Source of the DNA: a virus
Taxonomy: Duplodnaviria; Caudoviricetes
Length of the DNA: 53,099 nucleotides
IMG/VR virus record: IMGVR_UViG_3300028361_000502
Span: 1 to 53,099 of that record
Strand: one strand, 5' to 3'
Part shown: piece by piece, positions 5,729 to 40,191 of the stretch
Layout: each line of letters begins with the position of its first letter
How positions within the stretch are numbered: position 1 is the first letter of the stretch
The notes under the pieces: generated by a model
The model's input: only the letters and a program-made list of their open reading frames with translations
The model's database searches: none
What the model was told of the DNA's origin: nothing
Translations under genes and position numbers: made by a program

Positions 5729-6081
5729 TTTTTACTCCTAGCCGCAGCTTGTTTTGCTTTAAACAGTTTAACATCGTTTACAGCACTTGTCAACGCCGCA
5801 GCATAATTCAATGCCTGCTGTTCTTTTAGAATAGTACTGGCTTCGTATTCTACATAGCCACGAGTTAACAGACTCCAAATATCACGCCAACGACGGCGTC
5901 CCCAAAACCGTGTCTTCACAGTGGTATAGATGGTAACAGTTACACTATGGTCGTCTGCTTCTATGTCAACCGTATGAGCGTGATCAGGATCAGTACAGTC
6001 ACAAGGTACTTGATACCAAACGCTTTCGCCCCAATCATTTAGTTTGAGTATACCTTCTGCTGGTTTTTCAGGCTTCATCAT
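5725..6081 (-). CDS. Hypothetical protein (CxC..H motif)
   Basis: 118 aa ORF overlapping both neighbours. Confidence 0.7.
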   Translation of the reverse strand: MMKPEKPAEGILKLNDWGESVWYQVPCDCTDPDHAHTVDIEADDHSVTVTIYTTVKTRFWGRRRWRDIWSLLTRGYVEYEASTILKEQQALNYAAALTSAVNDVKLFKAKQAAARSKK

Positions 6082-6253
6082 TGTTCTCCTCGTATACTAC
6101 TATTTGCGCACTCTGCCCCCAAATAGCCGCTGCTTCTTGTGCTGCTTCGTGGGTGTCGTGTAGTACAGGTTCTACTTCATACATAGCACCTGTCGGGCGA
6201 GTTACATAGATATAATCGTCGCTTCCAAAAGGTACCATTACAGCATATTTCAT
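6068..6253 (-). CDS. Hypothetical protein
   Basis: 61 aa ORF coupled by a TAATG overlap. Confidence 0.65.
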   Translation of the reverse strand: MKYAVMVPFGSDDYIYVTRPTGAMYEVEPVLHDTHEAAQEAAAIWGQSAQIVVYEENNDEA

Positions 6254-6657
6254 TAACTTAGTCCTGCGATCAGTTTGTAATTATCCCAAGCTTTCTTAGC
6301 TGCTGGGTTTGAATCAACAACATCATCACTCAGCACTACATCATACCAATAGTGGTCTAACCTTTGAGGGTGAGCACCATACTGTCGTGGCTGGTGTAGT
6401 TTTCCCTGCTTTTTAAGATAAACACAGATGTTGCGCACTGTCTGTTCATCCGCAGCAGGAATGCTGCTCCACTCAGGAGCACTGTGTAAACTACCAGCAC
6501 CGGCGCCGCCAGCATACCCTTTCCAAATTGACCCCCATTGTGCGTCGTTTTCTGGATCAAAATCTGTACGGGCAACAATCACCAACACATCGTTGATACC
6601 AACTGTACCTTCGTAAATGTCTCTAACACAACGAGACAGCGAGCTTCCTACTTTCAT
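6253..6657 (-). CDS. Hypothetical phage protein
   Basis: 134 aa ORF, GAGG RBS, upstream promoter. Confidence 0.75.
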   Translation of the reverse strand: MKVGSSLSRCVRDIYEGTVGINDVLVIVARTDFDPENDAQWGSIWKGYAGGAGAGSLHSAPEWSSIPAADEQTVRNICVYLKKQGKLHQPRQYGAHPQRLDHYWYDVVLSDDVVDSNPAAKKAWDNYKLIAGLS

Positions 6658-6687
6658 TATATCCTCTTTTGATTATATGTTTCTTAA

Positions 6688-6715
6688 ACTATAACATAGA
6701 CTAACGTTATGTCAA
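6688..6715 (-). promoter_or_regulatory. Sigma70-type promoter
   Basis: TTGACA-N16-TATAGT with TGn. Confidence 0.6.
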
Positions 6716-6742
6716 CCGATAAATACCATATGGAGGTATAAC

Positions 6743-6877
6743 ATGGAAAAATGTACTAAATGCGGACACGATTGCCACTGCGATAAGGGCGTATGTGAAC
6801 AATGCCACAATGATGTGTGTAGCGATTGTGAACACAACGATGAATTAGATCATGCTCCTACGGATACCCAGGGCTAA
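6743..6877 (+). CDS. Cys/His-rich metallothionein-like miniprotein (44 aa, not in ORF track)
   Basis: MEKCTKCGHDCHCDKGVCEQCHNDVCSDCEH...; GGAGG RBS; ATAAATA upstream at about 6719-6725. Confidence 0.7.
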   Translation: MEKCTKCGHDCHCDKGVCEQCHNDVCSDCEHNDELDHAPTDTQG

Positions 6878-7363
6878 TCTAGCAGGGTACAGTTCGATAC
6901 TCACACTGTTGTTTTGATTGCCGCCCAGAATCTGATAGTAGTCTACACTGTCTATGGTCACTGTGCTGATGTAAAACCCAACGTGTCCCTGCCAACCCTG
7001 GTTGCCTCTTGGAAAAATCACAAGGTCACCGGCCAACGGAGCGTCTACTGATTTGCCCCAATTTAAAAAGCTTCTGGCCAGCAGTGGATGCTGGCTTACG
7101 CTTTCTGACCCAGCAATACCGCTATCGTTGAGAACAGCATTGATAAACGCTGCGCACCATTCTGTTCTTACAGGATCTACTCCGATAAATTCTCTCAGTT
7201 CTGCTCTGTGATCTTGTTCGGTATAGTCTACGTATTGTACCGCAGTTATCAGCTTGGTTTCTGTTACAGTAGGTATTCTATCAACAGTCTCAGGTATAAC
7301 GTCTCCGAGAGATATAGCACATCCACTCAGAAGTACTGCTGATAGAATTATAATTTTTTTCAT
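6845..7363 (-). CDS. TIGR02594-like NlpC/P60-CHAP peptidoglycan hydrolase lipoprotein
   Basis: Lipobox LLSGC; WCAAF, ARSFLNWG, GHVGF and LGGNQ motifs. Confidence 0.85.
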   Translation of the reverse strand: MKKIIILSAVLLSGCAISLGDVIPETVDRIPTVTETKLITAVQYVDYTEQDHRAELREFIGVDPVRTEWCAAFINAVLNDSGIAGSESVSQHPLLARSFLNWGKSVDAPLAGDLVIFPRGNQGWQGHVGFYISTVTIDSVDYYQILGGNQNNSVSIELYPARLALGIRRSMI

Positions 7364-7426
7364 TGCCCTTGCCCTCACATGTATTTATTTTGATAAATAT
7401 TATTATAAAGTTAGAGGGCACACTTT

Positions 7427-7705
7427 ATGGATTTTTTAACACTAGTTGGCGAAGTAGGTTTTCCCATTGCTGGAGCGTTAGCAGCCGGCGTGTTTGTTTT
7501 CATTACGCTGAAGTTTATACTTGCCAGTGTTACTGATTCAGTTCACACACTTAAAAACATCATGGGATCACTGGACAATCGTGTACAGACCATGAACAAC
7601 GATCTAGTCAAGATAGACGCACTGCTGAGTTATGTACTACATATCAAACCCAATGTAGAACGTATAGCTGCCAATGAGGGCAAAGATGATGCTCGTAGAG
7701 ATTAA
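7427..7705 (+). CDS. Small membrane protein (N-terminal TM plus coiled coil), holin-like
   Basis: GFPIAGA TM segment; LDNRVQTMNNDLVKID; paralogous to the next gene. Confidence 0.75.
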   Translation: MDFLTLVGEVGFPIAGALAAGVFVFITLKFILASVTDSVHTLKNIMGSLDNRVQTMNNDLVKIDALLSYVLHIKPNVERIAANEGKDDARRD

Positions 7706-7707
7706 CT

Positions 7708-8076
7708 ATGGAATTTGATATAGCAACTGCAATTAAAGATTTTGGTTTCCCAGTTGTGGCAGCAATGGGTCTCGGATATTTCATATATTATATATGGAAA
7801 TGGGTAACTGAAACTATCGATCCCATACTGGGCGAAACACAGTTTACGCTGATCAAACTGGTGGATCGTGTTAGAATGTTAGACAACGATCTTATACGTC
7901 TCAACATGAAACTCAGCATGGTGCTGGAATATAGAGGCATGTTGGAACAGTCTGGTATGCCTAAAAAAGACATAGAAGAACTGGACGATATCATAAACAA
8001 ATATCAATCAAAGAGTGCTGTGTTCAACAGTACTGGTAAAGCAGCGCCTAAGCCTGCAGAACCAAAAAAAAACTAA
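7708..8076 (+). CDS. Small membrane protein, paralog of the upstream gene, holin-like
   Basis: FGFPVVAA TM segment; LVDRVRMLDNDLIRLN. Confidence 0.75.
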   Translation: MEFDIATAIKDFGFPVVAAMGLGYFIYYIWKWVTETIDPILGETQFTLIKLVDRVRMLDNDLIRLNMKLSMVLEYRGMLEQSGMPKKDIEELDDIINKYQSKSAVFNSTGKAAPKPAEPKKN

Positions 8077-8120
8077 CAGTACCTAAATTAAAATTTGCTT
8101 GGTTCCAAAGCACACGAAAT

Positions 8121-8792
8121 TTATTGATTAGTTTTTTGTTGTTGCTGATACTTAACGTTACAGTCTTTGTATTTTTCTATTAAAATATCAGCCACAGTGT
8201 CACTACACACAGTTTCATAATGAGTGTGTGGAACTTCAACATGCGCCATGTCCGATCTGCTTTTCATACTTTCAATAGTAACAACACCATCGTTGGGCCC
8301 ACCGTGATATGGTACTTGACCAGTTGTGCTTACAACCTGTGTCCAAGGCACTGTTAATTTTATTTCCTGTGCTAGGCGTATAGGATCTGCGTTGCGTCCA
8401 ATATCTCTAAACAGCGGATAGTTTGGCACAATATATTTGGCCCAATCTGCTGTGCTGCTGCCAGCGAACGGTGTGCTGATGCTTACGCCGCCTAGTACTC
8501 TAATGTACTTGGTAAGGTGCAGAGCATACAGCCCGCCTAGACTGTGTCCTATAACAAAGTGTGGACCACGCCCTTGCACTTCTTCAGTGATCATATCTAA
8601 ATTATCACTGAAGCGATTCATACTGCTGTAGTTTACAAATATTTCTTTTGAAAAGTTTGTTTGACTTCTAAGATATTTAAAACTTAAATCAGTTTGATTG
8701 GCACCGTGTATCCAGATAACATTAACATTATCTGTTTCTTGTCCGTTGTACTCTGTGTCTTTGTTGAATATATTTTTAAAATAATTTATCAT
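8121..8792 (-). CDS. Alpha/beta hydrolase (lipase/esterase-like)
   Basis: IHG oxyanion motif, GHSLGG nucleophile elbow, STPFAGS, NDGVV, His; ATGA-coupled to the cyclase. Confidence 0.85.
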   Translation of the reverse strand: MINYFKNIFNKDTEYNGQETDNVNVIWIHGANQTDLSFKYLRSQTNFSKEIFVNYSSMNRFSDNLDMITEEVQGRGPHFVIGHSLGGLYALHLTKYIRVLGGVSISTPFAGSSTADWAKYIVPNYPLFRDIGRNADPIRLAQEIKLTVPWTQVVSTTGQVPYHGGPNDGVVTIESMKSRSDMAHVEVPHTHYETVCSDTVADILIEKYKDCNVKYQQQQKTNQ

Positions 8793-10828
8793 TTGCTTGT
8801 GGCCACAAATACGCCTGACCAGTTGTCTGGCAGGTCTTGTGTGTTCATATACTCACAACGTTCTATCCACATATCATAATATAGATCCATCTTACCTTCA
8901 AACTGTCCTTTTAATCTACGACATTCTTCTACAGCTTCAAGAAAACGTTTCTGTCTGTACAAGCCGTGCATAACAGCATGTCGTTTCCTGCTGCTATTAT
9001 AATGATTTTTAACATTGTCCAGCACTGTGTATATGCCCAGTCCAACACTCTTGCCTTTGACCTGTAGATCATCTATTTTGAGGAAGAACCAGTCTTGTGA
9101 GCATTGCTTGACTGTTGCTTCTCCGATCAGCAACAAGCATCCGTACTCTTTACATTTTGATTCGACTCTGGCTGCGGTGCTGACTGCGTCTCCCAGCACG
9201 TCGTAGCTGTGTCTTTTGGTTGATCCCATTTCCCCCAAATAGCCCAATCCAGTATTAATTCCAGCGCCCATCCCGACTGGCGGTCTTCCTTGAGGTATGA
9301 TAACCGTTTCATTAAATCTCTCCACAGCTCGTAGCATTTTTAGCCCTGTTGCTACGGCTGTGTCAGGGTGGTTTGCATCGTCTATAGGTGCGTTGTGAAT
9401 GTGCATACTAGCATCGCCAATATACTTGATAATCATACCATCAGCATCAAGCACAGGCTCTGTGATAGCATCCATATAGCCATTCATTATTTTAGTAAGT
9501 CCTTGTACGTCATCACCAAAGCTTTCACCCAATGGTGTAAATCCACGCAGGTCTGAGAATACAATGCTGACTTCTCTCTTGGTACCTTTTTTAATAAGAT
9601 CTGGATTGGTCTGTAACAGTTTAACCACAGTTGGGCTTGCGTATCCTTCAAACTGTTTCTTAATTGCCTGCTTCTGCAAGAATTCATCTACAAACTTGAT
9701 CACATATCTAATCACACCTACCAACAGTAGAAATGCTGCTGGAGTGAATCCGTCTACCAACCAGTTGTATTCTGTAAACACCCATATGCTGTAACCAATA
9801 CTCCCGCCCACGGACAACACAAAGAAGGCTATGCCCACGTATGTCCAACGAGCGAGAGCGATTAACAATATGCCAGCGAATATAAACGCTGCCAGTTCAG
9901 CACTGCTTGCCCACGCAGGGCGCTGTATGTTGGTCTCATTAAACACTGTGCCCAGCATAGCCGCTTGTAGTTCATGTGGGTACACGCCGCCTGCTGCTGT
10001 TGCTATAGGCTGGCTTAGTCCTGCTGCTGTGGGTGTAACAAACACAATACCGCCAGCAAAGTCTGTGGGTAAATCCGCAGCACTTACACTGATGCTTTTC
10101 TGACTCCAGTCAATCCATACACGGCCCAGTTCATCTGTGGGTATAACACCAAACTGTGGAATACGCAGTCTGTCAACACCCAGTGGGCTCAGTTTGATTT
10201 GAAAGCTAGGGTCGCCTGCCAATACTCTCAGCACTTCCATAGTCACGTTTGGATACAGTGTGTCTCCGCTGTAGAACACAAGCGGCACACGACGAGTAAC
10301 ACCATCTATTTCAGGAAAGGTGTTAACTATTCCACTGCCCACTGCATTTTGTTCAACCCAAGGCACGTTGGCTATAATACCAGGAACCTCTGGTATCAAA
10401 TACATATAGTCGCTGTTGATAATACTAGCACCAGGATTGATGGGTTCATTTCTGCCCTGCTCTGCGCCCAGCATGTTGACTATAACGGGATATTGCTGCA
10501 TAGCTTGTGCCAGTATTTCATCTTCGCCGGCTCTGTCAGACTCTGCCATAAACACCATGAACACTACTAGCCCAGCGCCTCTGTCATATATATCCTCTAT
10601 GAGGCTAGCATAATCACCTCTGGGCCAGGGCCATTGACCCTGTGCCTCTAAGCTAGCTTCGTCTATGTTCACAGTGTAAATGTTGTTGTTTACTGGCTCT
10701 TGATTAATTATCAATGTATCAAAATAACGCAGTTTCAAACTTTCTAAAAAGTTTGGATTTGCGTTCATCACATAGGCTAAAACAGCCAAAACCAATATAC
10801 TCCACAGAGGCGATAACAACTTTTTCAT
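8789..10828 (-). CDS. CHASE2-domain class III adenylate cyclase
   Basis: N-terminal TM, CHASE2 (IDEASL..GQWPWPR, DGVTRRVPL), three TMs, FSDLRGFT, KYIGDA, GINTG, YDVLGDAVSTAARVES. Confidence 0.93.
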   Translation of the reverse strand: MKKLLSPLWSILVLAVLAYVMNANPNFLESLKLRYFDTLIINQEPVNNNIYTVNIDEASLEAQGQWPWPRGDYASLIEDIYDRGAGLVVFMVFMAESDRAGEDEILAQAMQQYPVIVNMLGAEQGRNEPINPGASIINSDYMYLIPEVPGIIANVPWVEQNAVGSGIVNTFPEIDGVTRRVPLVFYSGDTLYPNVTMEVLRVLAGDPSFQIKLSPLGVDRLRIPQFGVIPTDELGRVWIDWSQKSISVSAADLPTDFAGGIVFVTPTAAGLSQPIATAAGGVYPHELQAAMLGTVFNETNIQRPAWASSAELAAFIFAGILLIALARWTYVGIAFFVLSVGGSIGYSIWVFTEYNWLVDGFTPAAFLLLVGVIRYVIKFVDEFLQKQAIKKQFEGYASPTVVKLLQTNPDLIKKGTKREVSIVFSDLRGFTPLGESFGDDVQGLTKIMNGYMDAITEPVLDADGMIIKYIGDASMHIHNAPIDDANHPDTAVATGLKMLRAVERFNETVIIPQGRPPVGMGAGINTGLGYLGEMGSTKRHSYDVLGDAVSTAARVESKCKEYGCLLLIGEATVKQCSQDWFFLKIDDLQVKGKSVGLGIYTVLDNVKNHYNSSRKRHAVMHGLYRQKRFLEAVEECRRLKGQFEGKMDLYYDMWIERCEYMNTQDLPDNWSGVFVATSK

Positions 10829-10842
10829 TCAGTATTTATTCA

Positions 10843-10869
10843 AAAATATAGGGCCAAGGGCCCTATATT
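10843..10869 (-). terminator. Intrinsic terminator after the curli operon
   Basis: AATATAGGGC-ccttg-GCCCTATATT hairpin followed by a T run. Confidence 0.75.
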
Positions 10870-10887
10870 GAAATGGTACAATGATGA

Positions 10888-12033
10888 TTACTGTTGGTCA
10901 ACAGTTAGGTTACAGGTTCCAGTAGTACAAACACCGTTTACCACTGTGTTGTCACTTAGGTCATGTGGTAGACTGTACAGTTGGTTCGTGTCGCCGCTCT
11001 GTGTTAGGCTAAAGTTCCAGTTGCCGCCTGAGTTGGTCAATTCAACTGTTGCTGCGTGATTGCCCAAGCCTTCTTGTAGCACTGTGACTGTGGCATTGTC
11101 GCCTAAACTTATAAGATCCAAGTAGTGTTCGCCTGATCCTTGTTGTGTGATTGTGTATGTGCCAAAACTACCATCGATGTCTAAGAACGCTTGCTTTTCG
11201 CTGTCACCCTGCTGTAAGAATGTAAGAGTGTTTGAATCGCCTACTATGTTGATGTCAGCAAAGTTTCTGTCAGTGTTGGTACCGCTCTGTGTGATGTCAG
11301 TTATGTTTGAATTACCCTGTAAGTACATTAACAAATAGTTACCATTGCTTAGTTGTGTGATGTCAACATCGTTGCTGTCGCCTATGATGGTCAAGTCAAT
11401 GTTGTTGCCTGTGGTTATGGCATTTGCGGCGTCTACCTGTGCCTGTTGTACACTGGTGATAGCACTTCTAAACACTGGTGTTGGTGCAGGAGCAGGTGCT
11501 GGCGCTGATGCAGTTTCGCCTGCTGCTAGAGGAGTTGTTGAATCAGGGACCCAAGTGCTCATAGTAGCGTTTGATGGATTTTCTTCTTCAACTGTAAATG
11601 AAGCACTATCACCTATGCTGTAGCCTTGAGCGGTTGTGATAAGTGTTCCCCAAAACCCGTCGCCCAAGTAGAATATAGCGCCGTCTGCTAGAGCTCGAAA
11701 TGTACCTGTGTTGTGGATTACTTCAGCAACTGTTCCGTCACTGTTGTATAGTGCCATACCATAAGTACCTGGATTGGTTGTTGAATCAAAAAACGCAAAG
11801 TATTGACTTGCGCTGTTGATATTTGCATAGTCTGTTGAGGTCATTCTAGATGAACTTGGTACACTTCTGTACAGATAGCTGTAGCCGCTTGTATTAAGTG
11901 TTCCGCCGCTTATACCCCATTGTACATCAAATATCTGTGCTGTACTAAATTTACCTGTTGTGATATCAGCCCATGCTGCTGAGGAAAATGTTAGTACAAA
12001 AAATACTGTTATTATTCTTATTAAATTTTTCAT
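10888..12033 (-). CDS. Secreted curlin-repeat protein with an extra N-terminal domain
   Basis: Signal peptide MKNLIR...AAWA; APAPAPAP linker; C-terminal repeats of the type I.GDSN...I.Q.G; start moved to 12033 (ATGA overlap). Confidence 0.8.
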   Translation of the reverse strand: MKNLIRIITVFFVLTFSSAAWADITTGKFSTAQIFDVQWGISGGTLNTSGYSYLYRSVPSSSRMTSTDYANINSASQYFAFFDSTTNPGTYGMALYNSDGTVAEVIHNTGTFRALADGAIFYLGDGFWGTLITTAQGYSIGDSASFTVEEENPSNATMSTWVPDSTTPLAAGETASAPAPAPAPTPVFRSAITSVQQAQVDAANAITTGNNIDLTIIGDSNDVDITQLSNGNYLLMYLQGNSNITDITQSGTNTDRNFADINIVGDSNTLTFLQQGDSEKQAFLDIDGSFGTYTITQQGSGEHYLDLISLGDNATVTVLQEGLGNHAATVELTNSGGNWNFSLTQSGDTNQLYSLPHDLSDNTVVNGVCTTGTCNLTVDQQ

Positions 12034-13124
12034 TGTGTTTGTACCACCTTTATGTTTACGTTTGTGCCACCGTCTTGTATTTGTATAGTTGCGGCATATT
12101 CGTCTTGTATGAGACTGTAGGTCCCGTGTGTGTCTGCGCTGGTTGTGATCACACTTATATGAGGCTGTCTGTCGCTTTCTATATAGATGTAACTTTCGTT
12201 TGCTGCCCATTGTATCCAAGGATATTTGTTTATACCTGGTAGAATAGCATTTTCGTCTTCAGACAATTCATCTTCGTCTAGGCCTGTGCTGAGGTTCAAC
12301 AGGTTATCCAAGTAATCATTGTTCAGTCTGTTTATATTAAGTTCTGAAAAATTCAATAGATCCTCGTCAAGTAGGTTTGCACTGAGTTGTTCGTATTCCA
12401 ATAAGTCGAAATCCAATGCTGTTGTCTGTTCTTCTTCCTCTTCTTCAGTGCCAAAGCCATTGACAAACTCTGAAGGAGGAACAATGATTAGATTGTTGTT
12501 GATATCGTTTGGACCTAACAGTAGACGCTTGGGGTCACTTGGCATCATAGCCAAACTGCTTACCATAGTGCCTTGATATGCTTCTGTAAGCAGCACTGAT
12601 CCTGCTGCGTTGCTCACTGTGATAGCGCCAACTGGACATTCATCTTCGTCGAATGTAGCGTCAGGACAGCTGGGCAATAGAATCACTAGACTGCGACCCA
12701 GTTCATCCACAGTCATACTAAAGTCTGTGCCTCTAACTGTGATGCTGGCAGTGGGTGTAGTAATGCTTACACGATCTCTGCTGTTCTTTGCTATTCTGCC
12801 TGATGCCATCTGTACAGTGCCAAGTGCCACACGCATACTCACACTGCCAGTGCCGGTGTTGGCGTCATACACAAAGTCGTCAATCACCAATTCACTCTGT
12901 TCAGTAATTCGCACTTTTGAATCGTCTTCGAATGTGATTTCTAGATTGGTTCTAGCAGTGATAAGTTTGTCCAGCATTTCCACACCAAAGCCTGTTTGTT
13001 CGAAAACAAGTTCTTCTTGACTGCGCACAGCGCCAGCAGGATTTCCATCAAACTCTGTGATGCTGCCTACTTCAGCAAGACCTATGCAGGGCGTTAATAT
13101 CATTATACCAATCCAACGCCACAT
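12030..13124 (-). CDS. FecR-domain periplasmic protein
   Basis: Signal peptide; D.L.T...LEITFEDDSKVRITEQSELVID, ITTPTASITVRGTDF FecR motifs; acidic C-terminal region. Confidence 0.88.
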   Translation of the reverse strand: MWRWIGIMILTPCIGLAEVGSITEFDGNPAGAVRSQEELVFEQTGFGVEMLDKLITARTNLEITFEDDSKVRITEQSELVIDDFVYDANTGTGSVSMRVALGTVQMASGRIAKNSRDRVSITTPTASITVRGTDFSMTVDELGRSLVILLPSCPDATFDEDECPVGAITVSNAAGSVLLTEAYQGTMVSSLAMMPSDPKRLLLGPNDINNNLIIVPPSEFVNGFGTEEEEEEQTTALDFDLLEYEQLSANLLDEDLLNFSELNINRLNNDYLDNLLNLSTGLDEDELSEDENAILPGINKYPWIQWAANESYIYIESDRQPHISVITTSADTHGTYSLIQDEYAATIQIQDGGTNVNIKVVQTQ

Positions 13125-13125
13125 C

Positions 13126-13815
13126 TTAGTTTTGCAATATGTCTACTGTGTTGCTGCTGCCTGTCACAGTCATATTCACATAGGTGTAGCCCATTGCAGT
13201 TTGTTGATCAACACTGATAGTATTGCTGTCACCGTCCACAGTCATACTGACTTGATTGAACCCGCCTGCACTGGTTTGAAACAGATTGATTTCGTTGAAG
13301 TTGCTGCTGGTGCTTTGTCCAACATCAACTATGTTAACAGCATCAGCACTGTCCAGTGCATAATTGATGATGTTGTCGCTACCAATAATGTTTGTGGTTG
13401 TGTCAGTGTTGTTTACAATTATACCATTACACACACTGTTGGTGTAGGTCTGGCAATAGGTCATTACGTTGTCACTGCCCACTATGTTTGTGGTAAATGT
13501 ATTGTTCATACCGCCAAAGATTTCTCCAGTGATGATGTTCATATCGCCTGTGGCAGTGTAGTTAAATGTAGTAGTACTAGCGCCTGATTCAAACTCTAGG
13601 TCTGCTTGGTTGGCATCGCCACTCTGTGTAATATTAACAGTGATGTCATCACCTTCAAGGTTCATTGGATCAGATTCTGTGTTGATTCTGTTGTTGCCGT
13701 TTTCCTGTAGTACGTTTACAGTTAGGTCGCCACCAGCTTGATCAATGTAAACTTCGCTGGCCATTGCTGTGCTTGCCAGCAGTGAGAACACGAGTGTGGT
13801 TATAATTTTTTTCAT
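13126..13815 (-). CDS. Curlin-like repeat protein
   Basis: Signal peptide; about 22-aa repeats ..Q.GD.N / I.GSDN; Asn/Gln/Gly/Thr rich. Confidence 0.8.
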   Translation of the reverse strand: MKKIITTLVFSLLASTAMASEVYIDQAGGDLTVNVLQENGNNRINTESDPMNLEGDDITVNITQSGDANQADLEFESGASTTTFNYTATGDMNIITGEIFGGMNNTFTTNIVGSDNVMTYCQTYTNSVCNGIIVNNTDTTTNIIGSDNIINYALDSADAVNIVDVGQSTSSNFNEINLFQTSAGGFNQVSMTVDGDSNTISVDQQTAMGYTYVNMTVTGSSNTVDILQN

Positions 13816-13840
13816 TTTTTGCCCTCTTGATAAGTTAATC

Positions 13841-14620
13841 TTATTCTTGTTGTTGGATGGACCAGATACCGTTGTCTGCTCCCTCCTTTATCATTTCTAC
13901 TATAGCTGCTTGTATAGCCAATCTCACAGCGTGATTCACGCTTTCGTTTTGACTGTTGCCTATTTCCAGTTCAACTGCTTCTGTGCCCAGTTCAATAAAG
14001 CGGAATATACCCATGTTTGTGCTGGTGCTTACCACTGTCTTTGTCACAGCCGTTGATGTAAGTATCTCACCAGTTTGTACACTCACACATCTCATACTGA
14101 TAGTGATCACATCTTCTCTGTATTGAGTATATGGTCCTATGCCTAGGTAACGTGCTCCAGCGCCACCTGTTAGTGTGTTGCTGTCATAGCCAACTATAGC
14201 GCCCTCTATAATCAGTCCAGCAAACATCAGTGGTGCTAGTTGTGTTTCGTCGCCCACGCTTTCACGTGTTTGTCTAATAATCTGTCTTTCACGTGATAGG
14301 TTTTCAAGTCCCACACGCTCTACTACTTTGAACCAAGTGCCATCGCCTACATCACGCAGTGCTTTGATAACGTATTCACTTGCGCCCTGTGTTACTGCTG
14401 TTGATATGTTGGCCAGTCTGTCACTGGGCATACGTTGTCCAGTCTTGTCTTGAAATTCATACACTGCTGCCACCATAGGTCCTGCTAGTGGAGGTAGTGC
14501 GTTCAAGTATTCTGCGTCAGTGATTACAACCTGTGCTGGTTCGCTCTCTATTCTGTTCACAGTACTGGCACAGCCTGCGAGCAGTGCGGTGGATAATAAT
14601 ACAGCCAATAGTATTTTCAT
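13841..14620 (-). CDS. csgG: Curli secretion channel CsgG
   Basis: Lipobox LAGC; AVYEFQDKTGQR, STAVTQGA, WFKVVERVGLENLSRERQIIR, GGAGARYLGIG. Confidence 0.93.
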   Translation of the reverse strand: MKILLAVLLSTALLAGCASTVNRIESEPAQVVITDAEYLNALPPLAGPMVAAVYEFQDKTGQRMPSDRLANISTAVTQGASEYVIKALRDVGDGTWFKVVERVGLENLSRERQIIRQTRESVGDETQLAPLMFAGLIIEGAIVGYDSNTLTGGAGARYLGIGPYTQYREDVITISMRCVSVQTGEILTSTAVTKTVVSTSTNMGIFRFIELGTEAVELEIGNSQNESVNHAVRLAIQAAIVEMIKEGADNGIWSIQQQE

Positions 14621-15081
14621 TAGAACGCAAACTCCCCAGTTGGCACGTCAAAGCTGCTGGTCAGTTCACCGCTTGAATTGTACACTTCTACGTAGATTCT
14701 ATCGTCTATATCTCGCTTCCAGCGTATGTTGTCACCAAACGGAGTAGTTGCTTCTGCCCATTCGCCCACAACGGTTGTGCCGCCTTCGCCAAACAATGCG
14801 TCTGCTATCTGTCTACTCAATTGAGCATAGATTCTACTTTCTAGATTGTTTTGAAACTTGTAAGCGTTGGTGTTTCTATCGTCACGCTCTGCTCTGTCTA
14901 TTTCAGCCTGTGCATCTGCACGAATCTTATCTCTGCGTTGCTGTTCCAACTGTTCGATTGTGAGAACATGTGTGCTGTATCCGTTGCCGCTGAACGCAGG
15001 CGAGTTGAAGCCAAACGTAAGTTCGCTTGCGTTTACAGAAGTAGCCAGAAATAGTGGCACAATCCAAAATAGTTTTTTCAT
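14620..15081 (-). CDS. csgF: Curli assembly protein CsgF
   Basis: Signal peptide, then SELTFGFNSPAFSG; F..NLESRIYAQLSRQI. Confidence 0.85.
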   Translation of the reverse strand: MKKLFWIVPLFLATSVNASELTFGFNSPAFSGNGYSTHVLTIEQLEQQRRDKIRADAQAEIDRAERDDRNTNAYKFQNNLESRIYAQLSRQIADALFGEGGTTVVGEWAEATTPFGDNIRWKRDIDDRIYVEVYNSSGELTSSFDVPTGEFAF

Positions 15082-15126
15082 TCTCGAGCCCTCAAAGAAT
15101 CAGTGAGCCCTCACGCTCTACTGTAC

Positions 15127-15133
15127 TATTTAT
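15127..15133 (-). promoter_or_regulatory. Late-type promoter ATAAATA for the curli operon (representative; the motif recurs in many intergenic gaps)
   Basis: TAAATA upstream of genes at about 4242, 7382, 10833, 16702, 18845, 22833, 25881, 29603, 30431, 41835, 43967, 45447, 46184, 46687, 48973; resembles the T4 late promoter TATAAATA. Confidence 0.7.
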
Positions 15134-15170
15134 CGGATCTGGCGGAAATGATTAACTGTGCTGTTTGTGT

Positions 15171-16704: not shown

Positions 16705-17397
16705 TTATACTATTTTAGGGAACAACATGTCACGACAGAATACATCAACAGACGCTTCATCTAAGCCTAGGCTCTTCATAGTTTTAGCTGTATGGGGATT
16801 CTGCTGTTGATTTTCGCAGTACCAGTTTTGTGCTTTTATACTCTCGTCACGATCCGCAGTGTGATCGAAAATTCTTATTTCTTCAACGTAAGCATGAAGA
16901 TTGTTTACAGCTATGTTGATGATTGCTTCTGCTTCTTCTAGAGTGTTTACATTGCCCGCGGCCAACATACGTTCAGTAAAGATGTTACGAGCCCACTCCG
17001 GTAGTTCACGCTGCTTCTTGGGTACGAAGTTGTCTACACTATCATAGTAGCCGTGTACCATAGGATGATCAGGGTCTGTTGTGATGCTGAAATCGTGGAA
17101 GGCACCTGTGATTTTGTTCTTGCCTGCGATTACGTCAAAACCATAGATTGGTGCGTTGTTGTGTAGTTGTGGGAAAATGCACACATGCATCATCCAAAGA
17201 CCTTTTGTGTCTCTAGCATCCACAACGTCAATGTGGGCACGACGAATACTGTGATTGGCCCACACACGATTGATCCATCCGTTTTGGGGTTGATTAAAGT
17301 CTTCCAGTCCCTGCTCTGATATTTCTTCAGCAAAAGTATCAAACACTGCGATAATATCGTTTTGACATTCTATCAGTCGATCCCAAATAGCACTCAT
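16705..17397 (-). CDS. Ferredoxin-dependent bilin reductase (PcyA/PcyX family)
   Basis: RRAHIDVVDAR..KGLWMMHVCIFP, PIYGFDVIAG, AFHDFS, RELPEWARNIF, QNWYCENQQQNPHT. Confidence 0.9.
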   Translation of the reverse strand: MSAIWDRLIECQNDIIAVFDTFAEEISEQGLEDFNQPQNGWINRVWANHSIRRAHIDVVDARDTKGLWMMHVCIFPQLHNNAPIYGFDVIAGKNKITGAFHDFSITTDPDHPMVHGYYDSVDNFVPKKQRELPEWARNIFTERMLAAGNVNTLEEAEAIINIAVNNLHAYVEEIRIFDHTADRDESIKAQNWYCENQQQNPHTAKTMKSLGLDEASVDVFCRDMLFPKIV

Positions 17398-17972
17398 TCT
17401 GGCAACTCCGACATCTGTTCAAATAAACGTGCTGCAAAGTCAAAACAGAGATTTGCTTCTTCTGCCATTGAATCGTCACACCTGGCTCTGATTTGTTCTT
17501 TTAATTCTTTAGCGTTGTCGTGCTGGTACATAGTAGCACTGCCCGGAACTTTCTTAGCAATCATTTGTCCGCCGCTGAGATCACCCATGTGTCTAACATA
17601 GACATGTGCCATAACCCGATGCGGATCGTCTTTGATAGTCATTAGGTGATCCATGTATTCCTTTACCGCAGGCAACAGTGGAGGCTGATTGGGCTGAAAC
17701 TCTGCCCATAGTTCTTGATAGTCTTCGTGTATTTTAGGAGCAATTCTTAGATCCGACAGCCCATGCATCATGGCAAACATTTCTAATAGATTGTATTGAG
17801 GATGTTGATTAAACAAGTAGGTAGCATAGCGTTTCTTACTGACTGTGCCGTTCAACAGTTCTTGAGCAAACGGTTGTGTCTCTGCTGTTTCGTGCATACG
17901 CTGTGTAAGAGATCTTAGATTGTTGCCCGCTGTGTCTGCGTGTTTTTCGCTGTGCTTTCTTACACTATCCAT
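17394..17972 (-). CDS. Heme oxygenase
   Basis: LRSLTQRMHETAE proximal His; AHVYVRHMGDLSGGQMI signature. Confidence 0.93.
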   Translation of the reverse strand: MDSVRKHSEKHADTAGNNLRSLTQRMHETAETQPFAQELLNGTVSKKRYATYLFNQHPQYNLLEMFAMMHGLSDLRIAPKIHEDYQELWAEFQPNQPPLLPAVKEYMDHLMTIKDDPHRVMAHVYVRHMGDLSGGQMIAKKVPGSATMYQHDNAKELKEQIRARCDDSMAEEANLCFDFAARLFEQMSELPE

Positions 17973-18277
17973 TACGATTCTTCAATCTTTAACTGTAGGA
18001 GGAAACCGTGATTGCGACTAGCGTTGATCGCTTCAACAGTTTTCTGTTCTGCTATCTCGTACTTGTAAGTGCCGATCACAGCAGATCCTTCGTTGTGAAT
18101 GTTCATAGTAAGAGTTTCAGCACTAGCATCGCTGTGGCGGAACACCTGTTTTAGAATTTCAATTACCCAATCCATAGGTGTTTGGTCGTCGTTGAGCATA
18201 ATCACATTGTACTTGCCGGGCTCTTTGACTACGTGTTTGATTGTTTCGTCTATCTTAATATCTACATCTGAGTTCAT
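17972..18277 (-). CDS. clpS: Clp protease adaptor ClpS
   Basis: YNVIMLNDDQTPMDWVIEIL, MNIHNEGSAVIG, EIAEQK. Confidence 0.92.
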   Translation of the reverse strand: MNSDVDIKIDETIKHVVKEPGKYNVIMLNDDQTPMDWVIEILKQVFRHSDASAETLTMNIHNEGSAVIGTYKYEIAEQKTVEAINASRNHGFLLQLKIEES

Positions 18278-18858: not shown

Positions 18859-19533
18859 TTATCTACCTATTGTTGTTTTTTCATATACACTATTATGTGT
18901 CTGAGTACAACGCACAAAAGTAGTACACTTTGATAACTGCTTGAGCTTAGAAGCCCCAGCATAGGTGCAGGTTGATCTGATGCCGCCAAGGATATCCTGT
19001 ACTGTATCAGCTACACTACCTCGGTAAGGTACCAAGACCGTCCTGCCTTCTGACGAACGATAGTTTTTCAATCCGCCAAAATGCTTGTCGTTTGCACTTT
19101 CACTGCTCATACCGTAGAATTGTACAAACTGTTTTGCTTCTACTAATTCTTCGCCGTTGTCATAGTGTATTTCGCCAGTCTTAAATGCTCTGTTGATAAC
19201 TTCGCCGCCGCCTTCATCGTGTCCAGCCAGCATACCACCCAGCATCACAAAGTCAGCACCCGCAGCAAATGCTTTGGCTACATCACCAGGAGTAGTACAT
19301 CCCCCGTCAGCAATGATATGACCACCAAGGCCGTGAGCAGCATCGGCACATTCGATAACTGCGGAAAGTTGCGGATATCCAACCCCGGTCTGCAATCTCG
19401 TCGTGCATACGCTATTATGTACCACTACACCCTCGATATTGTATGAATGATCTTCTTCGACTTCAAGATCATATGTGTATCCATCATATGGTTCAATTTC
19501 GAGTATATCTATTTCAACTAATTCAAATTTCAT
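18859..19533 (-). CDS. guaC: GMP reductase C-terminal part with split-intein C-half (residues 1-40)
   Basis: [20 protein letters not shown] followed by extein SVCTTR...IIADGG...FYGMSS...YRSSEG. Confidence 0.92.
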
Positions 19534-20481
19534 CTAAAATACTCCAGTCATTTTCTTTAATTTGTGATTCCCATATAACGAGATATCTATATCCGTTATC
19601 TTCTGCTTTAGAAGTAAATAATCCTTTGTTAAATCTTTTGCTTCGACCCATTCTGCATATTGATGAATATTATCATCTGTTACTGTTTCTCGATGTTTTT
19701 TATGTAAAACATAAAACTCGTGATTAGGAGTTGCTTTAATACCATTAATATTAACTATTGATTTTTTATCGTCAAATTTAAATGTATTAGTAACAGTTTT
19801 ATAAGATCCAGTGTGAGTTAAAACTTTTTCACCTTGTTTAATATCTTCGATATTCTTTAAACATTTATCAGTCTTAACTTTTTGCCCAGGAGCAAAACAT
19901 CCAGGTCCAATGCCAACTTTAACAATATCTGCTCCAGCAAGAATAAGTTCCTCCGTCATTTCACCTGTGACCACATTGCCTGCTATAATAACAAGATGTG
20001 GGAAACGTTTGCGTACTTCACGTACATGTGTTGTAAAGTGTTCTGAATATCCATTTGCAATGTCAATGCAAACATATTTTAGATTGTCTTCACACTTAGC
20101 ATACACGGCGCACAGCTTTTCAAAATCTGCTGTGCTGGTGCCTATGCTCATAGCCACATAGTCTGTGCGATTGAGTCCGTCACCATAATAGAACTCGATC
20201 AGTTCTTCCGCAGTGTAGGTTTTGACAAGGCAAGTAAAGATGCCTTGTGCGCCCAATGCATCTGCCATAGCAAATGTGCCAACACCGTCCATGTTAGCAG
20301 CCATGATAGGAATGCCTCGATAGTGTGGATCCTCTGTACAGTTGTCGGGGAAGTCTGGCACATAGTTTCTAAATATAAAACTACGTTCCAAGTCAACTTC
20401 TGAACGACTCTTAAGTGTGCTGCGCTTTGGGCGGATCAGCACATCCTTATAGTCTAGTCGTACTTCGTTGTCGATGCGCAT
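19534..20481 (-). CDS. guaC: GMP reductase N-terminal part with split-intein N-half (from Cys at 19899)
   Basis: DVLIRPKRSTLKSRS, AANMD, DIANGYSE, KVGIGPG, then CFAPGQKV...ATPNHEF (intein blocks A and B). Confidence 0.92.
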   Translation of the reverse strand: MRIDNEVRLDYKDVLIRPKRSTLKSRSEVDLERSFIFRNYVPDFPDNCTEDPHYRGIPIMAANMDGVGTFAMADALGAQGIFTCLVKTYTAEELIEFYYGDGLNRTDYVAMSIGTSTADFEKLCAVYAKCEDNLKYVCIDIANGYSEHFTTHVREVRKRFPHLVIIAGNVVTGEMTEELILAGADIVKVGIGPGCFAPGQKVKTDKCLKNIEDIKQGEKVLTHTGSYKTVTNTFKFDDKKSIVNINGIKATPNHEFYVLHKKHRETVTDDNIHQYAEWVEAKDLTKDYLLLKQKITDIDISLYGNHKLKKMTGVF

Positions 20482-28288: not shown

Positions 28289-28506
28289 TGTGTGTTCCTC
28301 TGTATGTTGTATGTATAATATATAGCATACAAATAGACCAAAGTCTACTTATATAGGTGCGTTAAAGTGTAGCAGATACTTACAGTTTCAGAGTGGTGCG
28401 TTTTGTATCCCACTATTTGTAACCCAATGTCCTAATCCTAGTTTAACGGGCACATTCTCTTACCCAGCTGATAAAACTATGTTAAACCTTTTTGCCGTCT
28501 GTAAGT

Positions 28507-28788
28507 GTAAGTTGATTCTGTTACTAGGTTCAACTTACAAAACCCTCACATACCCTTAGGCTGCTATTGCCATCTCTGGCGCTCTATTTGCGTTTGCATT
28601 TAGAATGTTTGACTGAATAACGTAGGTCAACACGAATACCTAAAAATAAGTTTTTAACGCCCGTCGATCCCTTTCGCCCCCGGAGTAAAACACACATTTA
28701 TATATGTGCTTTATGGTGGAGGCGTTGGCCTTCGAAAGCCAAGTCCGGTACATCAATCACCTATTCGTGATTAAACTATAAGACAGTA
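28507..28788 (-). ncRNA. ssrA: Circularly permuted (two-piece) tmRNA
   Basis: Acceptor piece ends CGCCTCCACCA (28714); 32-nt hairpin spacer; coding piece starts GGGGGCGAAAGGGATCGAC (28681) with G3-U70; tag frame 28597-28556 ANANRAPEMAIAA-stop; terminal CCTAGTAACAGAA hairpin. Confidence 0.92.
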
Positions 28789-29541
28789 TTATTTCCTATA
28801 GTATTCCATTCTACGACCTTTATACCAACCGTTTGGTATCTCGCCGCTCGTGTATTTATTTTCTTTTGTTGTTGGATTATAGATCCAAAAATTTCCATAA
28901 ACTCCAGACTTTCTCTTTAGCCTATCTCTTGCTTCTGTAATCCTTATCCATCCTTCTTGTATATTATATACGGAAAAAACTCGTTTGTCAAGATTGAATC
29001 TCGAAGTATCTGTAAGATTTTCTGGAACACACCAGCATTTGTCTTTCATACTATTATTTTCTTTTTGATATTTAGAAACTTTTTTGTATGATTCCTTATA
29101 GACATCAGGGTTGTCTCTAATCTTCCTTTCTTTAGATTCGTTAGCTTTTTTACTAAGATTTACAACTTCAGGGTCGCCCTTCTTAAATGAAGTTGATCGA
29201 AGTCCACCTCCTTTTTTAGCACCTTTTAATCTTGCTGCTTGGGCAGCAGGCGCCTTATTCCAAGTACTCCATCCTCCGTCGCCTTCTTCTATTTTAAGAT
29301 TAGCCCATTCGTTAGATTCGACAATATTAAAACGGTTGCTGTATTCTATGCCCTTTTCTTTAATAACATCTTTACTGTCTGTTATTATTAATATTTCTGT
29401 AGAGATATCAGCACCGTGTTTTTTAAGATGATTTGTCCATCGTGTACCACTGCCTTTATAAGTATATGGGTCAGCAGATGTCTGACCTAGGTATTTTAAT
29501 CCTGTTTGATTGTGTGTTTTTACATATAAATAATATGTCAT
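28789..29541 (-). CDS. Free-standing GIY-YIG-like homing endonuclease
   Basis: YYLYVKTHNQTGLKYLGQT, YKGSG, WANL..E.GDGG; AT-rich; AAGGAG RBS; own TAAATA promoter. Confidence 0.82.
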   Translation of the reverse strand: MTYYLYVKTHNQTGLKYLGQTSADPYTYKGSGTRWTNHLKKHGADISTEILIITDSKDVIKEKGIEYSNRFNIVESNEWANLKIEEGDGGWSTWNKAPAAQAARLKGAKKGGGLRSTSFKKGDPEVVNLSKKANESKERKIRDNPDVYKESYKKVSKYQKENNSMKDKCWCVPENLTDTSRFNLDKRVFSVYNIQEGWIRITEARDRLKRKSGVYGNFWIYNPTTKENKYTSGEIPNGWYKGRRMEYYRK

Positions 29542-31299: not shown

Positions 31300-32259
31300 T
31301 CAACCTCTACCTACCTGCTGAAGTGCAGTCACTGCCCATGGAAACTGTGGCAGGCTGGTTCTACTGCCGTTTGGTCCCCATGCTCTAGCACCTTCAACAT
31401 CTATATGAGTAAAGGTGTTGTACAGTCCTATACCGCCTATACCCTGTCGCACAGCCTCTTGTATGAACTGCGATCGCTGTGCTTGTGTAAAACTGCTTTG
31501 TACAATATCTAAAGCGTTGCCTCTTATGTGAGCACTGCTTTTAACGCCGCCTACTCTTTGGTTGTATTCCGGGCTACGATAGGCGCTGGTCACAGTGAGT
31601 TGAATGTTCATAGCCTGCGCAACTGCTATTGCTTTTTCTGCAAGTTGTGAATTGACTCTACTGTCTGTATGGGGAAGGAATACTAGCCATTCGCCGCCTT
31701 CTGCAGGCGGCCCTGCGCCTGGACCTTCTTGTGGTTCTCCGCCAGCCGCTGCTTGACCTGAGGGCAATGCGCCTGACTCACCTGTGACAGGACTTATTCC
31801 GCCTATACCGCCATCACCATATTCAAATGGGTCATTTCTCGTAGACGAGCCGCCCGCGGCTGCTTCATCTGCTGCGCCTTGAATTACCGCAGCGGCTTGT
31901 TCGTCGCTGACAAAAGGCATAGGAGCACCTACAAAGATATTACCTGCTATGCTTTGAACATTGGCAACATCTCCGGCCCAGACAGTGGATTGGTTTTGAA
32001 CAATTGTTTTGGCACCGCATATTCTTAAATCGTTGTTTCTATGAACTGGATTTCCATAAACAAATACAGATGCTGAACCTTCTGCTGAAGCAGGATTACA
32101 ATGCGGGGCTGCTGGACACAGTGCATCAGGAAAAGCAGGATCGCTGTATTCGATTACATTATTACCTTCAATGTATACTGTACGAGGGTTTTGTGGAATT
32201 AAGGCGCCGCCAGCATGTGTGTTAGGATCGTTTTTAACTGCCCATAACTCTTCAGACAT
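31300..32259 (-). CDS. PAAR-like spike-tip domain fused to a peptidase M15 (Zn D-Ala-D-Ala) domain
   Basis: N-terminal D.NTH.GG...TVYIEG...H....EGSASVFVYG.PVHR..D...CG; C-terminal TSAYRS..YN.RVGG...SAH..GNALDI...HID. Confidence 0.8.
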   Translation of the reverse strand: MSEELWAVKNDPNTHAGGALIPQNPRTVYIEGNNVIEYSDPAFPDALCPAAPHCNPASAEGSASVFVYGNPVHRNNDLRICGAKTIVQNQSTVWAGDVANVQSIAGNIFVGAPMPFVSDEQAAAVIQGAADEAAAGGSSTRNDPFEYGDGGIGGISPVTGESGALPSGQAAAGGEPQEGPGAGPPAEGGEWLVFLPHTDSRVNSQLAEKAIAVAQAMNIQLTVTSAYRSPEYNQRVGGVKSSAHIRGNALDIVQSSFTQAQRSQFIQEAVRQGIGGIGLYNTFTHIDVEGARAWGPNGSRTSLPQFPWAVTALQQVGRG

Positions 32260-38219: not shown

Positions 38220-38243
38220 AATATTATACCTTTCTGTATAATA

Positions 38244-39731: not shown

Positions 39732-39765
39732 TTTTATTTCCTTGTTCTGTTGTGTGATCTGATAT

Positions 39766-40191
39766 TTATTGGAGTGATGGCATGAGGTACTGGTATTCAG
39801 AAACGGTGGTGGTGGGAACTTGGCTTCTGTGAACATGCGTATCTCCGGCTGGGCTGACAACCCTATCATCAATGAACAGTAAGTATTCTACAGATGATCT
39901 TTGTTTGTCGTGTGTAATATGTATCTCGAATCTGGCAGGAGTAAAACGGTCAGTTAATTGTAAGGTGTAGCAGATCGCAAGGATCTTCACGAACACACAA
40001 TAATTATTTTCCTTGATTATTTCCCACGGTGCAGGCCAGGTACTTTGAGTGTAAGGGTCAGCAGCAATGCTGACCTCTGGGGCACGATTGAATAGGTCAA
40101 TTGTGTCCTGTATAGGGTCTTCAGCCGTCTCTAGTGCAGATCTGAAAGATCTCCAGAGTGCTAGACGTTGCTCATATGTTTTATCGAACAT
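39766..40191 (-). CDS. Hypothetical phage protein
   Basis: 141 aa; WPAPWEII..NNYC motif. Confidence 0.7.
   Translation of the reverse strand: MFDKTYEQRLALWRSFRSALETAEDPIQDTIDLFNRAPEVSIAADPYTQSTWPAPWEIIKENNYCVFVKILAICYTLQLTDRFTPARFEIHITHDKQRSSVEYLLFIDDRVVSPAGDTHVHRSQVPTTTVSEYQYLMPSLQ

Follow-up and report, generated by a model that had tools for sequence, protein, structure and literature searches.

The cassette and its secretion genes

We analysed a 53,099-base virus record (IMG/VR IMGVR_UViG_3300028361_000502; this whole stretch is hereafter called the window), which is estimated to represent 17% of its genome and has related records that reach 300 kb. The subject of this study is a cassette on the minus strand of the window in which homologues of the curli (type VIII) secretion genes csgF and csgG stand together with genes for curlin-repeat proteins, an exported FecR-fold protein and a CHASE2 receptor cyclase. 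Seven minus-strand open reading frames (ORFs), closely packed and intact, span positions 15081 to 8121. The gene content proposed by the first-pass annotation (csgF, csgG, curlin-like, FecR, curlin-like, CHASE2 cyclase and hydrolase) agrees with both the ORFs and the Pfam matches, and the genes are as follows.

14620..15081, minus strand: csgF homologue, 153 amino acids (Pfam PF10614, E 4.5e-10, 40.2 bits versus a cut-off of 25.8)
13841..14620, minus strand: csgG homologue, 259 amino acids (PF03783, E 4.3e-51, 173.6 bits versus a cut-off of 20.8)
13126..13815, minus strand: curlin-repeat protein 1, 229 amino acids (Curlin_rpt, E 0.0021, 18.4 bits, below the cut-off of 20.7)
12030..13124, minus strand: exported FecR-fold protein, 364 amino acids (PF04773, E 5.5e-10)
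10888..12033, minus strand: curlin-repeat protein 2, 381 amino acids (Curlin_rpt, E 0.0013, 19.1 bits, below the cut-off of 20.7)
8789..10828, minus strand: CHASE2 receptor class III nucleotide cyclase, 679 amino acids (PF05226, E 7e-38; Guanylate_cyc PF00211, E 9e-15)
8121..8792, minus strand: small cytoplasmic alpha/beta hydrolase, 223 amino acids (Abhydrolase_6, E 5.6e-6; motif GHSLGG)

The csgF and csgG genes overlap by 1 nucleotide (nt). The FecR gene lies between the two curlin genes, and its stop codon shares the sequence ATGA with the start of the second curlin gene, which we place at the ATG at 12033 and not at the TTG at 12219; the cyclase stop and the hydrolase start likewise share ATGA. 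The stretch 8121-15133 is present almost whole in lake-water metagenome runs, eight of which may be its source while a further one contains a share of 0.96, with no RNA data set among those listed; a nucleotide search of a phage collection with the whole window returned no match.

The CsgG homologue, an outer-membrane lipoprotein pore, aligns over its full length with E. coli CsgG chains (E 5.3e-49) and carries the lipobox LLAGC, and its constriction loop reads ...LANISTAV compared with ...ASNFSTAV in E. coli. The csgF product matches phrog_35372 (E 5.9e-39), begins with a signal-peptide-like segment and contains a conserved N-terminal stretch, F-x-F-x-S-P-A-F-x-G-N-G-Y-S, in an alignment of 19 sequences. 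Both curlin-repeat proteins have signal peptides, and Q-x-G-x-x-N strands recur in both translations. Curlin-repeat protein 1 ends in ...NTVDILQN; curlin-repeat protein 2 has an unmatched N-terminal domain of ~190 amino acids, then curlin repeats and the end ...CNLTVDQQ, and it matched the NCBIfam models CsgB (1.8e-5) and CsgA (2.6e-5) at ~24 bits, far below their cut-offs of 160-165.

The cassette resembles the E. coli curli secretion system in its full-length CsgG match, its CsgF family match and, less clearly, its putative secreted proteins with curlin-type repeats, but differs in that the phage curlin proteins score below the family cut-offs, in that the operon embeds FecR and cyclase genes, and in that the window has no CsgE, CsgC or sigma regulator. 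CsgE and CsgC had no match in the 53-kb record, which is itself a genome fragment, and no protein with sigma-70 region 2 (Sigma70_r2) or extracytoplasmic function (ECF) sigma factor was found in it. These searches agree with the first-pass annotation, which had reported csgE, csgC and ECF sigma as missing from the window (CsgD itself was not searched).

Linkage of the cassette genes across phages

We compared the cassette with the annotated genomes of the phages Melnitz (MZ577097) and HTVC008M (NC_020484), in which csgF, csgG, curlin, FecR, curlin and cyclase genes follow one another in the identical order. The window cyclase is 48% identical to that of Melnitz and 34% identical to that of HTVC008M over its full length, and the window CsgG is 47-50% identical to its relatives in these two phages. 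Linkage was then counted from two seeding directions, each sample consisting of closest relatives only. A cyclase-seeded scan of viral contigs yielded at least 213 relatives, the best 80 loci of which were kept, and a viral scan seeded with a CsgG alignment yielded at least 575 relatives, the closest 80 of which were kept. In the co-occurrence and synteny check that the first-pass annotation had proposed, all 48 cyclase-seeded loci whose upstream flank reaches 6.5 kb or more had csgF, csgG and FecR with the cyclase, and all 46 csgG-seeded loci extending 9 kb or further downstream had csgF, FecR, CHASE2 and the cyclase domain. In 47 of the 48 cyclase-seeded loci, csgF, csgG and FecR lie upstream of the cyclase on the same strand; they are inverted in one (L083). 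Each curlin gene was detected in 35/48 loci by tblastn with the window proteins; the curlin proteins diverge fast.

We note that the interval between the second curlin gene and the cyclase can be larger than in the window. In a locus of the subclade that also carries the hydrolase (L004, positions 5914-8353), ~3 kb separates the two genes and encodes a 640-amino acid exported protein with an outer-membrane-barrel-like end (...GFKIRF) and a 177-amino acid exported protein ending in ...IIRIEF. Envelope cargo genes seem to accumulate in this gap in the subclade.

The module is not new. The first-pass annotation knew of no characterisation of the whole module as a signalling pathway, and this needs correcting because, in the excerpts that we cite, Wittmers et al. 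2022 (PMC9599517) report, for podo- and myoviruses among the pelagiphages, a set made up of CsgF, CsgG, CsgA/B, FecR, another CsgA/B and an adenylate cyclase, and name FecR and the cyclase as putative regulators. The same excerpts report the cassette at all 65 ocean stations analysed, expression evidence from Pacific metatranscriptomes, some podophages that have the curli genes and FecR but no cyclase, and one or two "histidine kinases" before csgF. The term CHASE2 has 0 occurrences in the text of PMC9599517, and this was the only paper that a full-text search returned as joining phage, curli, adenylate cyclase and FecR. Zaragoza-Solas et al. 2020 (PMC7029224) had described csgF and csgG with three unnamed neighbours and, in the passages cited here, freshwater fonsimyophages without curli genes; Buchholz et al. 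2022 (PMC9004378), as excerpted, discuss the pore alone and propose a role in lysis. Compared with this published viral type VIII secretion region, the window shares the six genes and their order, but its DNA is present in lake-water metagenome runs, its record is an estimated 17% of the genome with relatives of up to 300 kb, and it has an alpha/beta hydrolase gene coupled to the cyclase. What the window contributes to this known cassette is a large, T4-like carrier from freshwater and the hydrolase add-on.

A FecR-fold protein with a curlin-type tail

To describe the FecR-fold protein, we used an AlphaFold2 (AF2) model (predicted local distance difference test, pLDDT, 70.3), in which three parts follow the signal peptide: a well-predicted beta-domain head (residues ~18-215), an acidic, disordered linker (~225-291) and a small, five-strand C-terminal domain that ends in a curlin-type tail, ...NVNIKVVQTQ. 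The head superimposes on the C-terminal cell-surface signalling domain of PupR (Z 14.6, root mean square deviation 2.8 over 136 residues; Foldseek E 1.1e-4). The head may be a binder, as the periplasmic signalling domain of PupR/FecR, whose fold it shares, binds a partner in the outer membrane. Unlike in FecR/PupR cell-surface signalling, however, there is neither a cytoplasmic anti-sigma domain nor a transmembrane anchor in the phage protein, whose signal peptide runs directly into the FecR domain, and no ECF sigma in the window. The protein is therefore not a FecR-type anti-sigma factor. Two further structural matches were too weak for use, namely that of the N-terminal part of the model to the "cell surface anchoring domain" 5ix9 (Z 5.9) and that of the C-terminal sheet to OspA-like sheets (Z ~5). 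A complex prediction for the periplasmic CHASE2 domain (26-306) and the FecR head (18-220) scored 0.00 against a mark of 0.32 and informs neither way.

The C-terminal consensus of the phage FecR proteins, G-x-G-G-N-N-x-I-x-I-x-Q, resembles the ends of the curlin proteins. We defined a tail motif as hydrophobic-x-hydrophobic-x-Q lying no more than 3 residues from the end and counted it over the non-identical ORFs of the phage-like loci, with the bacterial FecR proteins described below for comparison.

Phage FecR: 52/55
Curlin-1: 41/45
Curlin-2: 26/41
CsgF: 0/50
CsgG: 1/50
Cyclase: 5/71
Other ORFs: 28/1167
Bacterial FecR: 0/69

When a hidden Markov model (HMM) of the FecR tail was run against all ORFs of the phage-like loci, it gave two non-FecR matches at an independent E-value (i-E) of 1 or less, both of them to curlin-type proteins (0.49 and 0.8); the reverse HMMs, built from curlin tails, reached FecR tails only at i-E 1.2-1.8. 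Because these tests are marginal, we rely on the positional motif count instead, and we regard the shared tail as a strong positional regularity in the sequences and not as proof of homology. It may be read as a common signal for the pore or the fibre.

The CHASE2 cyclase

The cyclase of the window consists of a transmembrane (TM) segment, a periplasmic CHASE2 domain, three TM segments, the catalytic domain and a conserved C-terminal domain of ~80 amino acids, and it matches phrog_35576 over its full length (E 8.4e-174). Six residues have catalytic roles in class III cyclases, which we take to be two metal-binding Asp, a Lys and an Asp/Thr for the substrate, and an Asn and an Arg for the transition state. 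The window protein keeps D426, D472, K468, D543 and R554, that is, 5/6 of the canonical residues, and has S550 at the Asn position; in the alignment to solved cyclases, the phage sequence ...YDVLGDAVSTAAR... stands opposite ...YTILGDAVNVAAR... Both metal Asp residues, the Lys and the Arg are invariant in 63/63 cyclases. The substrate position 543 is Asp in 44/47 curli-linked cyclases versus Ser or Thr in 16/16 bacterial partners, and the curli-linked exceptions at positions 543 and 550 are L089, L094 and L097. No part of the cassette is more conserved than the catalytic core, which argues for function. In a quick tree with a midpoint root only, the curli-linked cyclases clustered together with support 100 and were separate from the bacterial partners, with L094 and the pair L089 and L097 branching first, then L092 and then 43 viral rows.

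Bacterial relatives of the FecR-cyclase pair

We scanned species genomes with a FecR profile, obtaining 387 relatives and keeping 79 loci, 16 of which (L084-L099) carry phage-type sequences. In the remaining 63 bacterial FecR loci, CsgG or CsgF was found within the flanks in none (0/63). A CHASE2 cyclase that shares the extra C-terminal domain adjoins FecR in 21 of these loci (22 at a looser threshold), and 19 of these 21 have an adjacent gene of ~480 codons whose product contains TPR repeats and matches SlipAM, TPR_Slam or DUF2860 weakly. This Slam-like gene occurs without the cyclase in a further 18 bacterial FecR loci and, by profile search, in no phage-like locus, where csgG and csgF stand beside FecR and the cyclase instead. 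In some bacterial loci a Metallophos phosphoesterase or a Crp-type regulator is added. Excerpts from the literature report comparable arrangements: a Campylobacterota cluster comprises a CHASE2 cyclase, a FecR protein, a phosphodiesterase and a TPR protein (PMC9239204), and a LysM-FecR gene adjoins a CHASE2 kinase gene in Burkholderia and P. aeruginosa (PMC5192318). The proposal of the first-pass annotation that FecR and CHASE2 work beside an outer-membrane component thus has a bacterial parallel in the 19/21 loci and in these published clusters.

The likeness between the bacterial trio and the phage cassette lies in an exported FecR-domain protein next to a CHASE2 cyclase with the extra C-terminal domain, with an outer-membrane translocon in the cluster. 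The differences are that the translocon is a Slam-like barrel in bacteria versus CsgG/CsgF in phages, that no curlin tail is present on the bacterial FecR proteins and that the bacterial cyclases keep Asn-550. A second parallel is the NsrA-CyaD1/CyaD2/CyaK-Clr system of S. meliloti, in which an outer-membrane protein works with CHASE2 adenylate cyclases: input via the outer-membrane barrel NsrA raises cyclic AMP (cAMP), according to excerpts of PMC13001267 and PMC7529298. As these excerpts describe it, though, NsrA is a barrel of ~1200 amino acids and not CsgG. The output regulator Clr has no counterpart in the 5 phage records searched. The S. meliloti FecR-domain gene smc02177 belongs to the same regulon and is reported to be dispensable for signal perception.

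We also looked for a bacterial home of the fused module among the loci with phage-type sequences that had been binned into metagenome-assembled genomes (MAGs). Two, L093 and L089, count as bacterial, and L097 is ambiguous; L092 was rejected because gp44, gp45 and ligase genes show it to be a T4-like phage contig. L093 (82 kb) and L089 (32 kb) come from two MAGs of Caulobacteraceae, and both carry csgF, csgG, two curlin-like genes, a tailed FecR and a CHASE2 cyclase (in L089 by HMM). The flanks of L093 are metabolic, with Metallophos just upstream and then TetR, amidohydrolase, acyl-CoA dehydrogenase, methylmalonyl-CoA mutase and TauD, and the phrog_18771 gene, which accompanies the phage cassettes (see below), was not found with the Caulobacteraceae fused module. 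CsgF occurs in 33/301 genomes of the order to which these contigs belong, and FecR and CHASE2 were found within ~9 kb of none of the 20 CsgF-CsgG loci from the other 32 CsgF genomes. A scan of genome contigs with the phage cyclase profile recovered no further bacterial fused module, giving only 3 CsgG loci on already-known contigs. The Caulobacteraceae copy may be a donor, a recipient or a MAG mis-assembly, and it provides at least one exception to the published claim that bacterial curli operons are without FecR and the cyclase.

Expression signals, companion genes and other features of the window

Four features on the minus strand and one neighbouring gene pair bear on the expression and surroundings of the cassette.

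15127..15134, minus strand: late-promoter-like motif of T4 type, GATAAATA, 46 nt upstream of csgF (motif match only)
10846-10868, minus strand: 10-bp hairpin after curlin-2 (fold -17.6 kcal/mol, z -3.9)
10842-10845, minus strand: U-run directly following this hairpin
10833-10840, minus strand: AATAAATA motif, ending 4 nt before the cyclase ATG
7427..8076, plus strand: two paralogous small proteins of 92 and 122 amino acids, phrog_18771 (PHROG E 9.6e-31 and 1.1e-27)

The hairpin and U-run after curlin-2 form a putative terminator; none of 200 shuffles was equally stable. ATAAATA occurs 23 times in the window versus 13.1 expected, a count reached in 2/100 shuffles. T4-type late promoters are plausible because large module-bearing relatives have the T4-type major capsid gene Gp23 (2/4 of them). 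Of the terminator and two late promoters claimed by the first-pass annotation, the hairpin with its U-run and the motifs are present, and "late" and "second promoter" are motif matches only.

The hydrolase found directly after the cyclase was regarded by the first-pass annotation as belonging to the module, which our counts contradict. It follows the cyclase in 28/80 cyclase-seeded loci, all in a subclade whose cyclases are 72-78% identical to that of the window, is found in 0/46 csgG-seeded loci and is absent from Melnitz and HTVC008M. We conclude that it is a later, lineage-specific add-on and not a part of the conserved module. A G-x-S-x-G nucleophile elbow is present in the protein, and S84, D168 and H191, which are invariant in 15 sequences, probably form its catalytic triad. 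The closest folds to its model (pLDDT 69.6) are those of TesA thioesterase, monoacylglycerol lipases and carboxylesterases (TM-score ~0.5), which are generic neighbours. A sequence search of the PDB gave nothing at E 1 or below, and the protein belongs to no family of NCBIfam or PHROG. The idea that it is a cAMP phosphodiesterase, like the Metallophos genes of the bacterial clusters, found no support.

The phrog_18771 pair is a further companion of the cassette. Each protein has an N-terminal TM helix followed by a coiled coil, with no Pfam or NCBIfam family and no kinase domain. Among 50,697 phage records, phrog_18771 matched only the 6 curli-bearing ones, and the pair adjoins the cassette in 39/39 wide-flank cyclase-seeded and 43/46 csgG-seeded loci; in the Atlas, it falls into viral clusters only, apart from one weak lead to YvrJ (0.89). 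The pair lies immediately before csgF in Melnitz and HTVC008M, whereas in the window it lies at the other side of the cassette and on the other strand. Judged by position only, the "histidine kinase" genes of PMC9599517 (as excerpted) may be these small phrog_18771 proteins. The pair is adjoined in the window by a gene on the minus strand (6845-7378) for a CHAP/NlpC-P60-like protein with a lipoprotein-type signal, LLSGC, an adjacency that recurs in few relatives (6 loci).

Elsewhere in the window, directly upstream of the neighbour gene of the cassette, a minus-strand block (16705-18277) encodes a bilin reductase of the ferredoxin-dependent type (PF05996, E 4.4e-16), together with a heme oxygenase (E 9.2e-20) and ClpS (E 3.8e-26). 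Cyanophages typically carry bilin genes. The neighbour gene itself, an ORF of 503 amino acids, has as its only isolate-phage relatives those of Synechococcus phage ACG-2014f (45 records, ~30% identity), and, given the bilin genes and these relatives, the host could be a freshwater cyanobacterium. An IMPDH/GMP-reductase is encoded at 18859-20481 (minus strand) in two adjacent ORFs with half of the domain in each; where the two meet there are weak Hint/intein matches, so that the gene may be split or interrupted by an intein. The large subunit of ribonucleotide reductase (36505-39872, minus strand) is likewise divided between ORFs at 38244-39872 and 36505-37461, and the ORF of 253 amino acids between them (37458-38219) may be an intein or a homing-endonuclease insertion. 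A transfer-messenger RNA (tmRNA) gene was identified by ARAGORN at 28465-28809 (minus strand; tag peptide ANANRAPEMAIAA), and the tmRNA gene of Melnitz likewise lies near its curli block. Finally, a PAAR motif (E 8.3e-7) and a Peptidase_M15 domain (E 3.7e-15) are fused in an ORF at 31300-32259 (minus strand), whose product may be the tip of a tail spike that can hydrolyse the cell wall.

Proposed mechanism and alternatives

Taking together the gene identities and their intactness, the strict linkage, the shared tail and the bacterial trio, we give about an even chance to the reading that this viral curli cassette is physically tied via FecR to the CHASE2 cyclase and is a curli-pore version of the bacterial trio. 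The physical contacts in this reading, the activity of the cyclase, the sensed signal and the output are what we infer. The CsgG lipoprotein pore and CsgF would be made in the infected cell and inserted in the outer membrane, where the pore would export the two Sec-dependent curlin-repeat proteins. The FecR-fold protein would be exported to the periplasm, and because it carries a short curlin-type tail, we propose that this pore or the fibre handles it or provides its docking site. Its PupR-like head, on the long acidic linker, would then report to the periplasmic CHASE2 domain of the cyclase, which would make cAMP to be read by host receptors. Such a relay from pore to cAMP is plausible. A more specific version, which we consider unlikely, is that FecR is a tethered reporter across the outer membrane, with a tail matched to its export pore: the curlin-type strand would sit in the CsgG/CsgF pore or the fibre, the linker would span the channel and the head would touch CHASE2, so that pull, blockage or contact at the surface by another phage, a neighbouring cell or a particle would be converted into cAMP. 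In the bacterial trios, the reporter would carry a different tail, suited to the Slam-like barrel.

Several points weigh against tying the pore to cAMP in this way. Position 550, the transition-state Asn, is Ser in 44/47 curli-linked cyclases versus Asn in 16/16 bacterial partners; mutating this Asn lowers the activity of mammalian cyclases, and, given Ser-550, the activity of the phage enzyme may be low or altered. A cyclic nucleotide monophosphate (cNMP)-binding protein is absent from the window and from four large related phage records (0/5), so any cAMP output would need receptors of the host. The tail is short, the regular expression by which it was counted was written after the alignment had been seen, and the HMM tests between FecR and curlin tails were marginal (i-E ~0.5 to 1.8). 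Lastly, the AATAAATA motif leaves little leader room before the cyclase ATG, and its position seems too near for an obvious promoter.

It is also conceivable, though in our view rather improbable, that the cassette serves two separate functions, in which curli fibres would aggregate cells for "sibling capture" or shield against superinfection, and FecR and the cyclase would form an independent periplasmic sensor that uses cAMP to reset the metabolism of the host, with no relay from the pore. Fibre and aggregation ideas are in print (PMC7029224 and PMC9599517, in excerpt), the bacterial FecR and CHASE2 proteins work without curli genes (none of 63 loci), the ordinary CsgF-CsgG loci of the Caulobacteraceae contigs' order are without FecR and CHASE2 (20/20), and podophages with curli genes and FecR but no cyclase are described in the excerpts of PMC9599517. 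Such independence is, however, difficult to square with a FecR gene that sits between the curlin genes with overlapping stop and start codons, with a curlin-type tail found only on phage-type FecR (52/55 versus 0/69), with a linkage that is complete in both seeding directions and with the Melnitz cultures of Buchholz et al., which, as excerpted, showed no clumping (PMC9004378).

We think it very unlikely that CsgG and CsgF are instead a gated outer-membrane channel, pinholin- or secretin-like, for lysis, with the cyclase and FecR setting the timing. The lysis role was proposed for Melnitz (PMC9004378), and in the window the cassette adjoins the two TM/coiled-coil proteins and the CHAP/NlpC-P60 lipoprotein (6845-7378), but the CHAP adjacency is confined to 6 loci, and the CsgF match with its conserved N-terminal stretch and the full-length CsgG match indicate an ordinary export pore. 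Moreover, the excerpts of PMC9004378 assumed that csgA/csgB were missing, whereas two secreted curlin-repeat proteins are encoded here and in the Melnitz annotation. A similarly small chance attaches to a cyclase that is weak or altered, acting as a scaffold or, via Asp-543/Ser-550, making another nucleotide, with cAMP not being the output. The correlated switch at positions 543 and 550 (44/47 curli-linked cyclases versus 16/16 bacterial partners) fits this idea; against it, the metal Asp pair and the Arg do not vary, the catalytic core is conserved so strongly that catalysis is favoured, and Lys/Asp is the usual ATP-specifying pair.

Significance

For the window itself, the outcome is mostly a correction: the module was known, the hydrolase is an add-on and signalling is still something that we infer. 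The cassette is nevertheless widespread, with at least 575 viral stretches that carry a CsgG relative and at least 213 that carry the cyclase, and it costs a phage ~7 kb. To our knowledge, few bacterial sensor domains that lack a known input mechanism are as common as CHASE2, and the shared tail, the trio with the Slam-like gene and the chromosomal bacterial copy together give a concrete idea of how CHASE2 could read the surface. The cultured pairs Melnitz/H5P1 and HTVC008M/HTCC1062 are usable systems for the cassette. If the FecR protein were indeed a tethered reporter, orphan CHASE2 sensors would be "secretion-coupled surface sensors", and phages could sense superinfection or contact.

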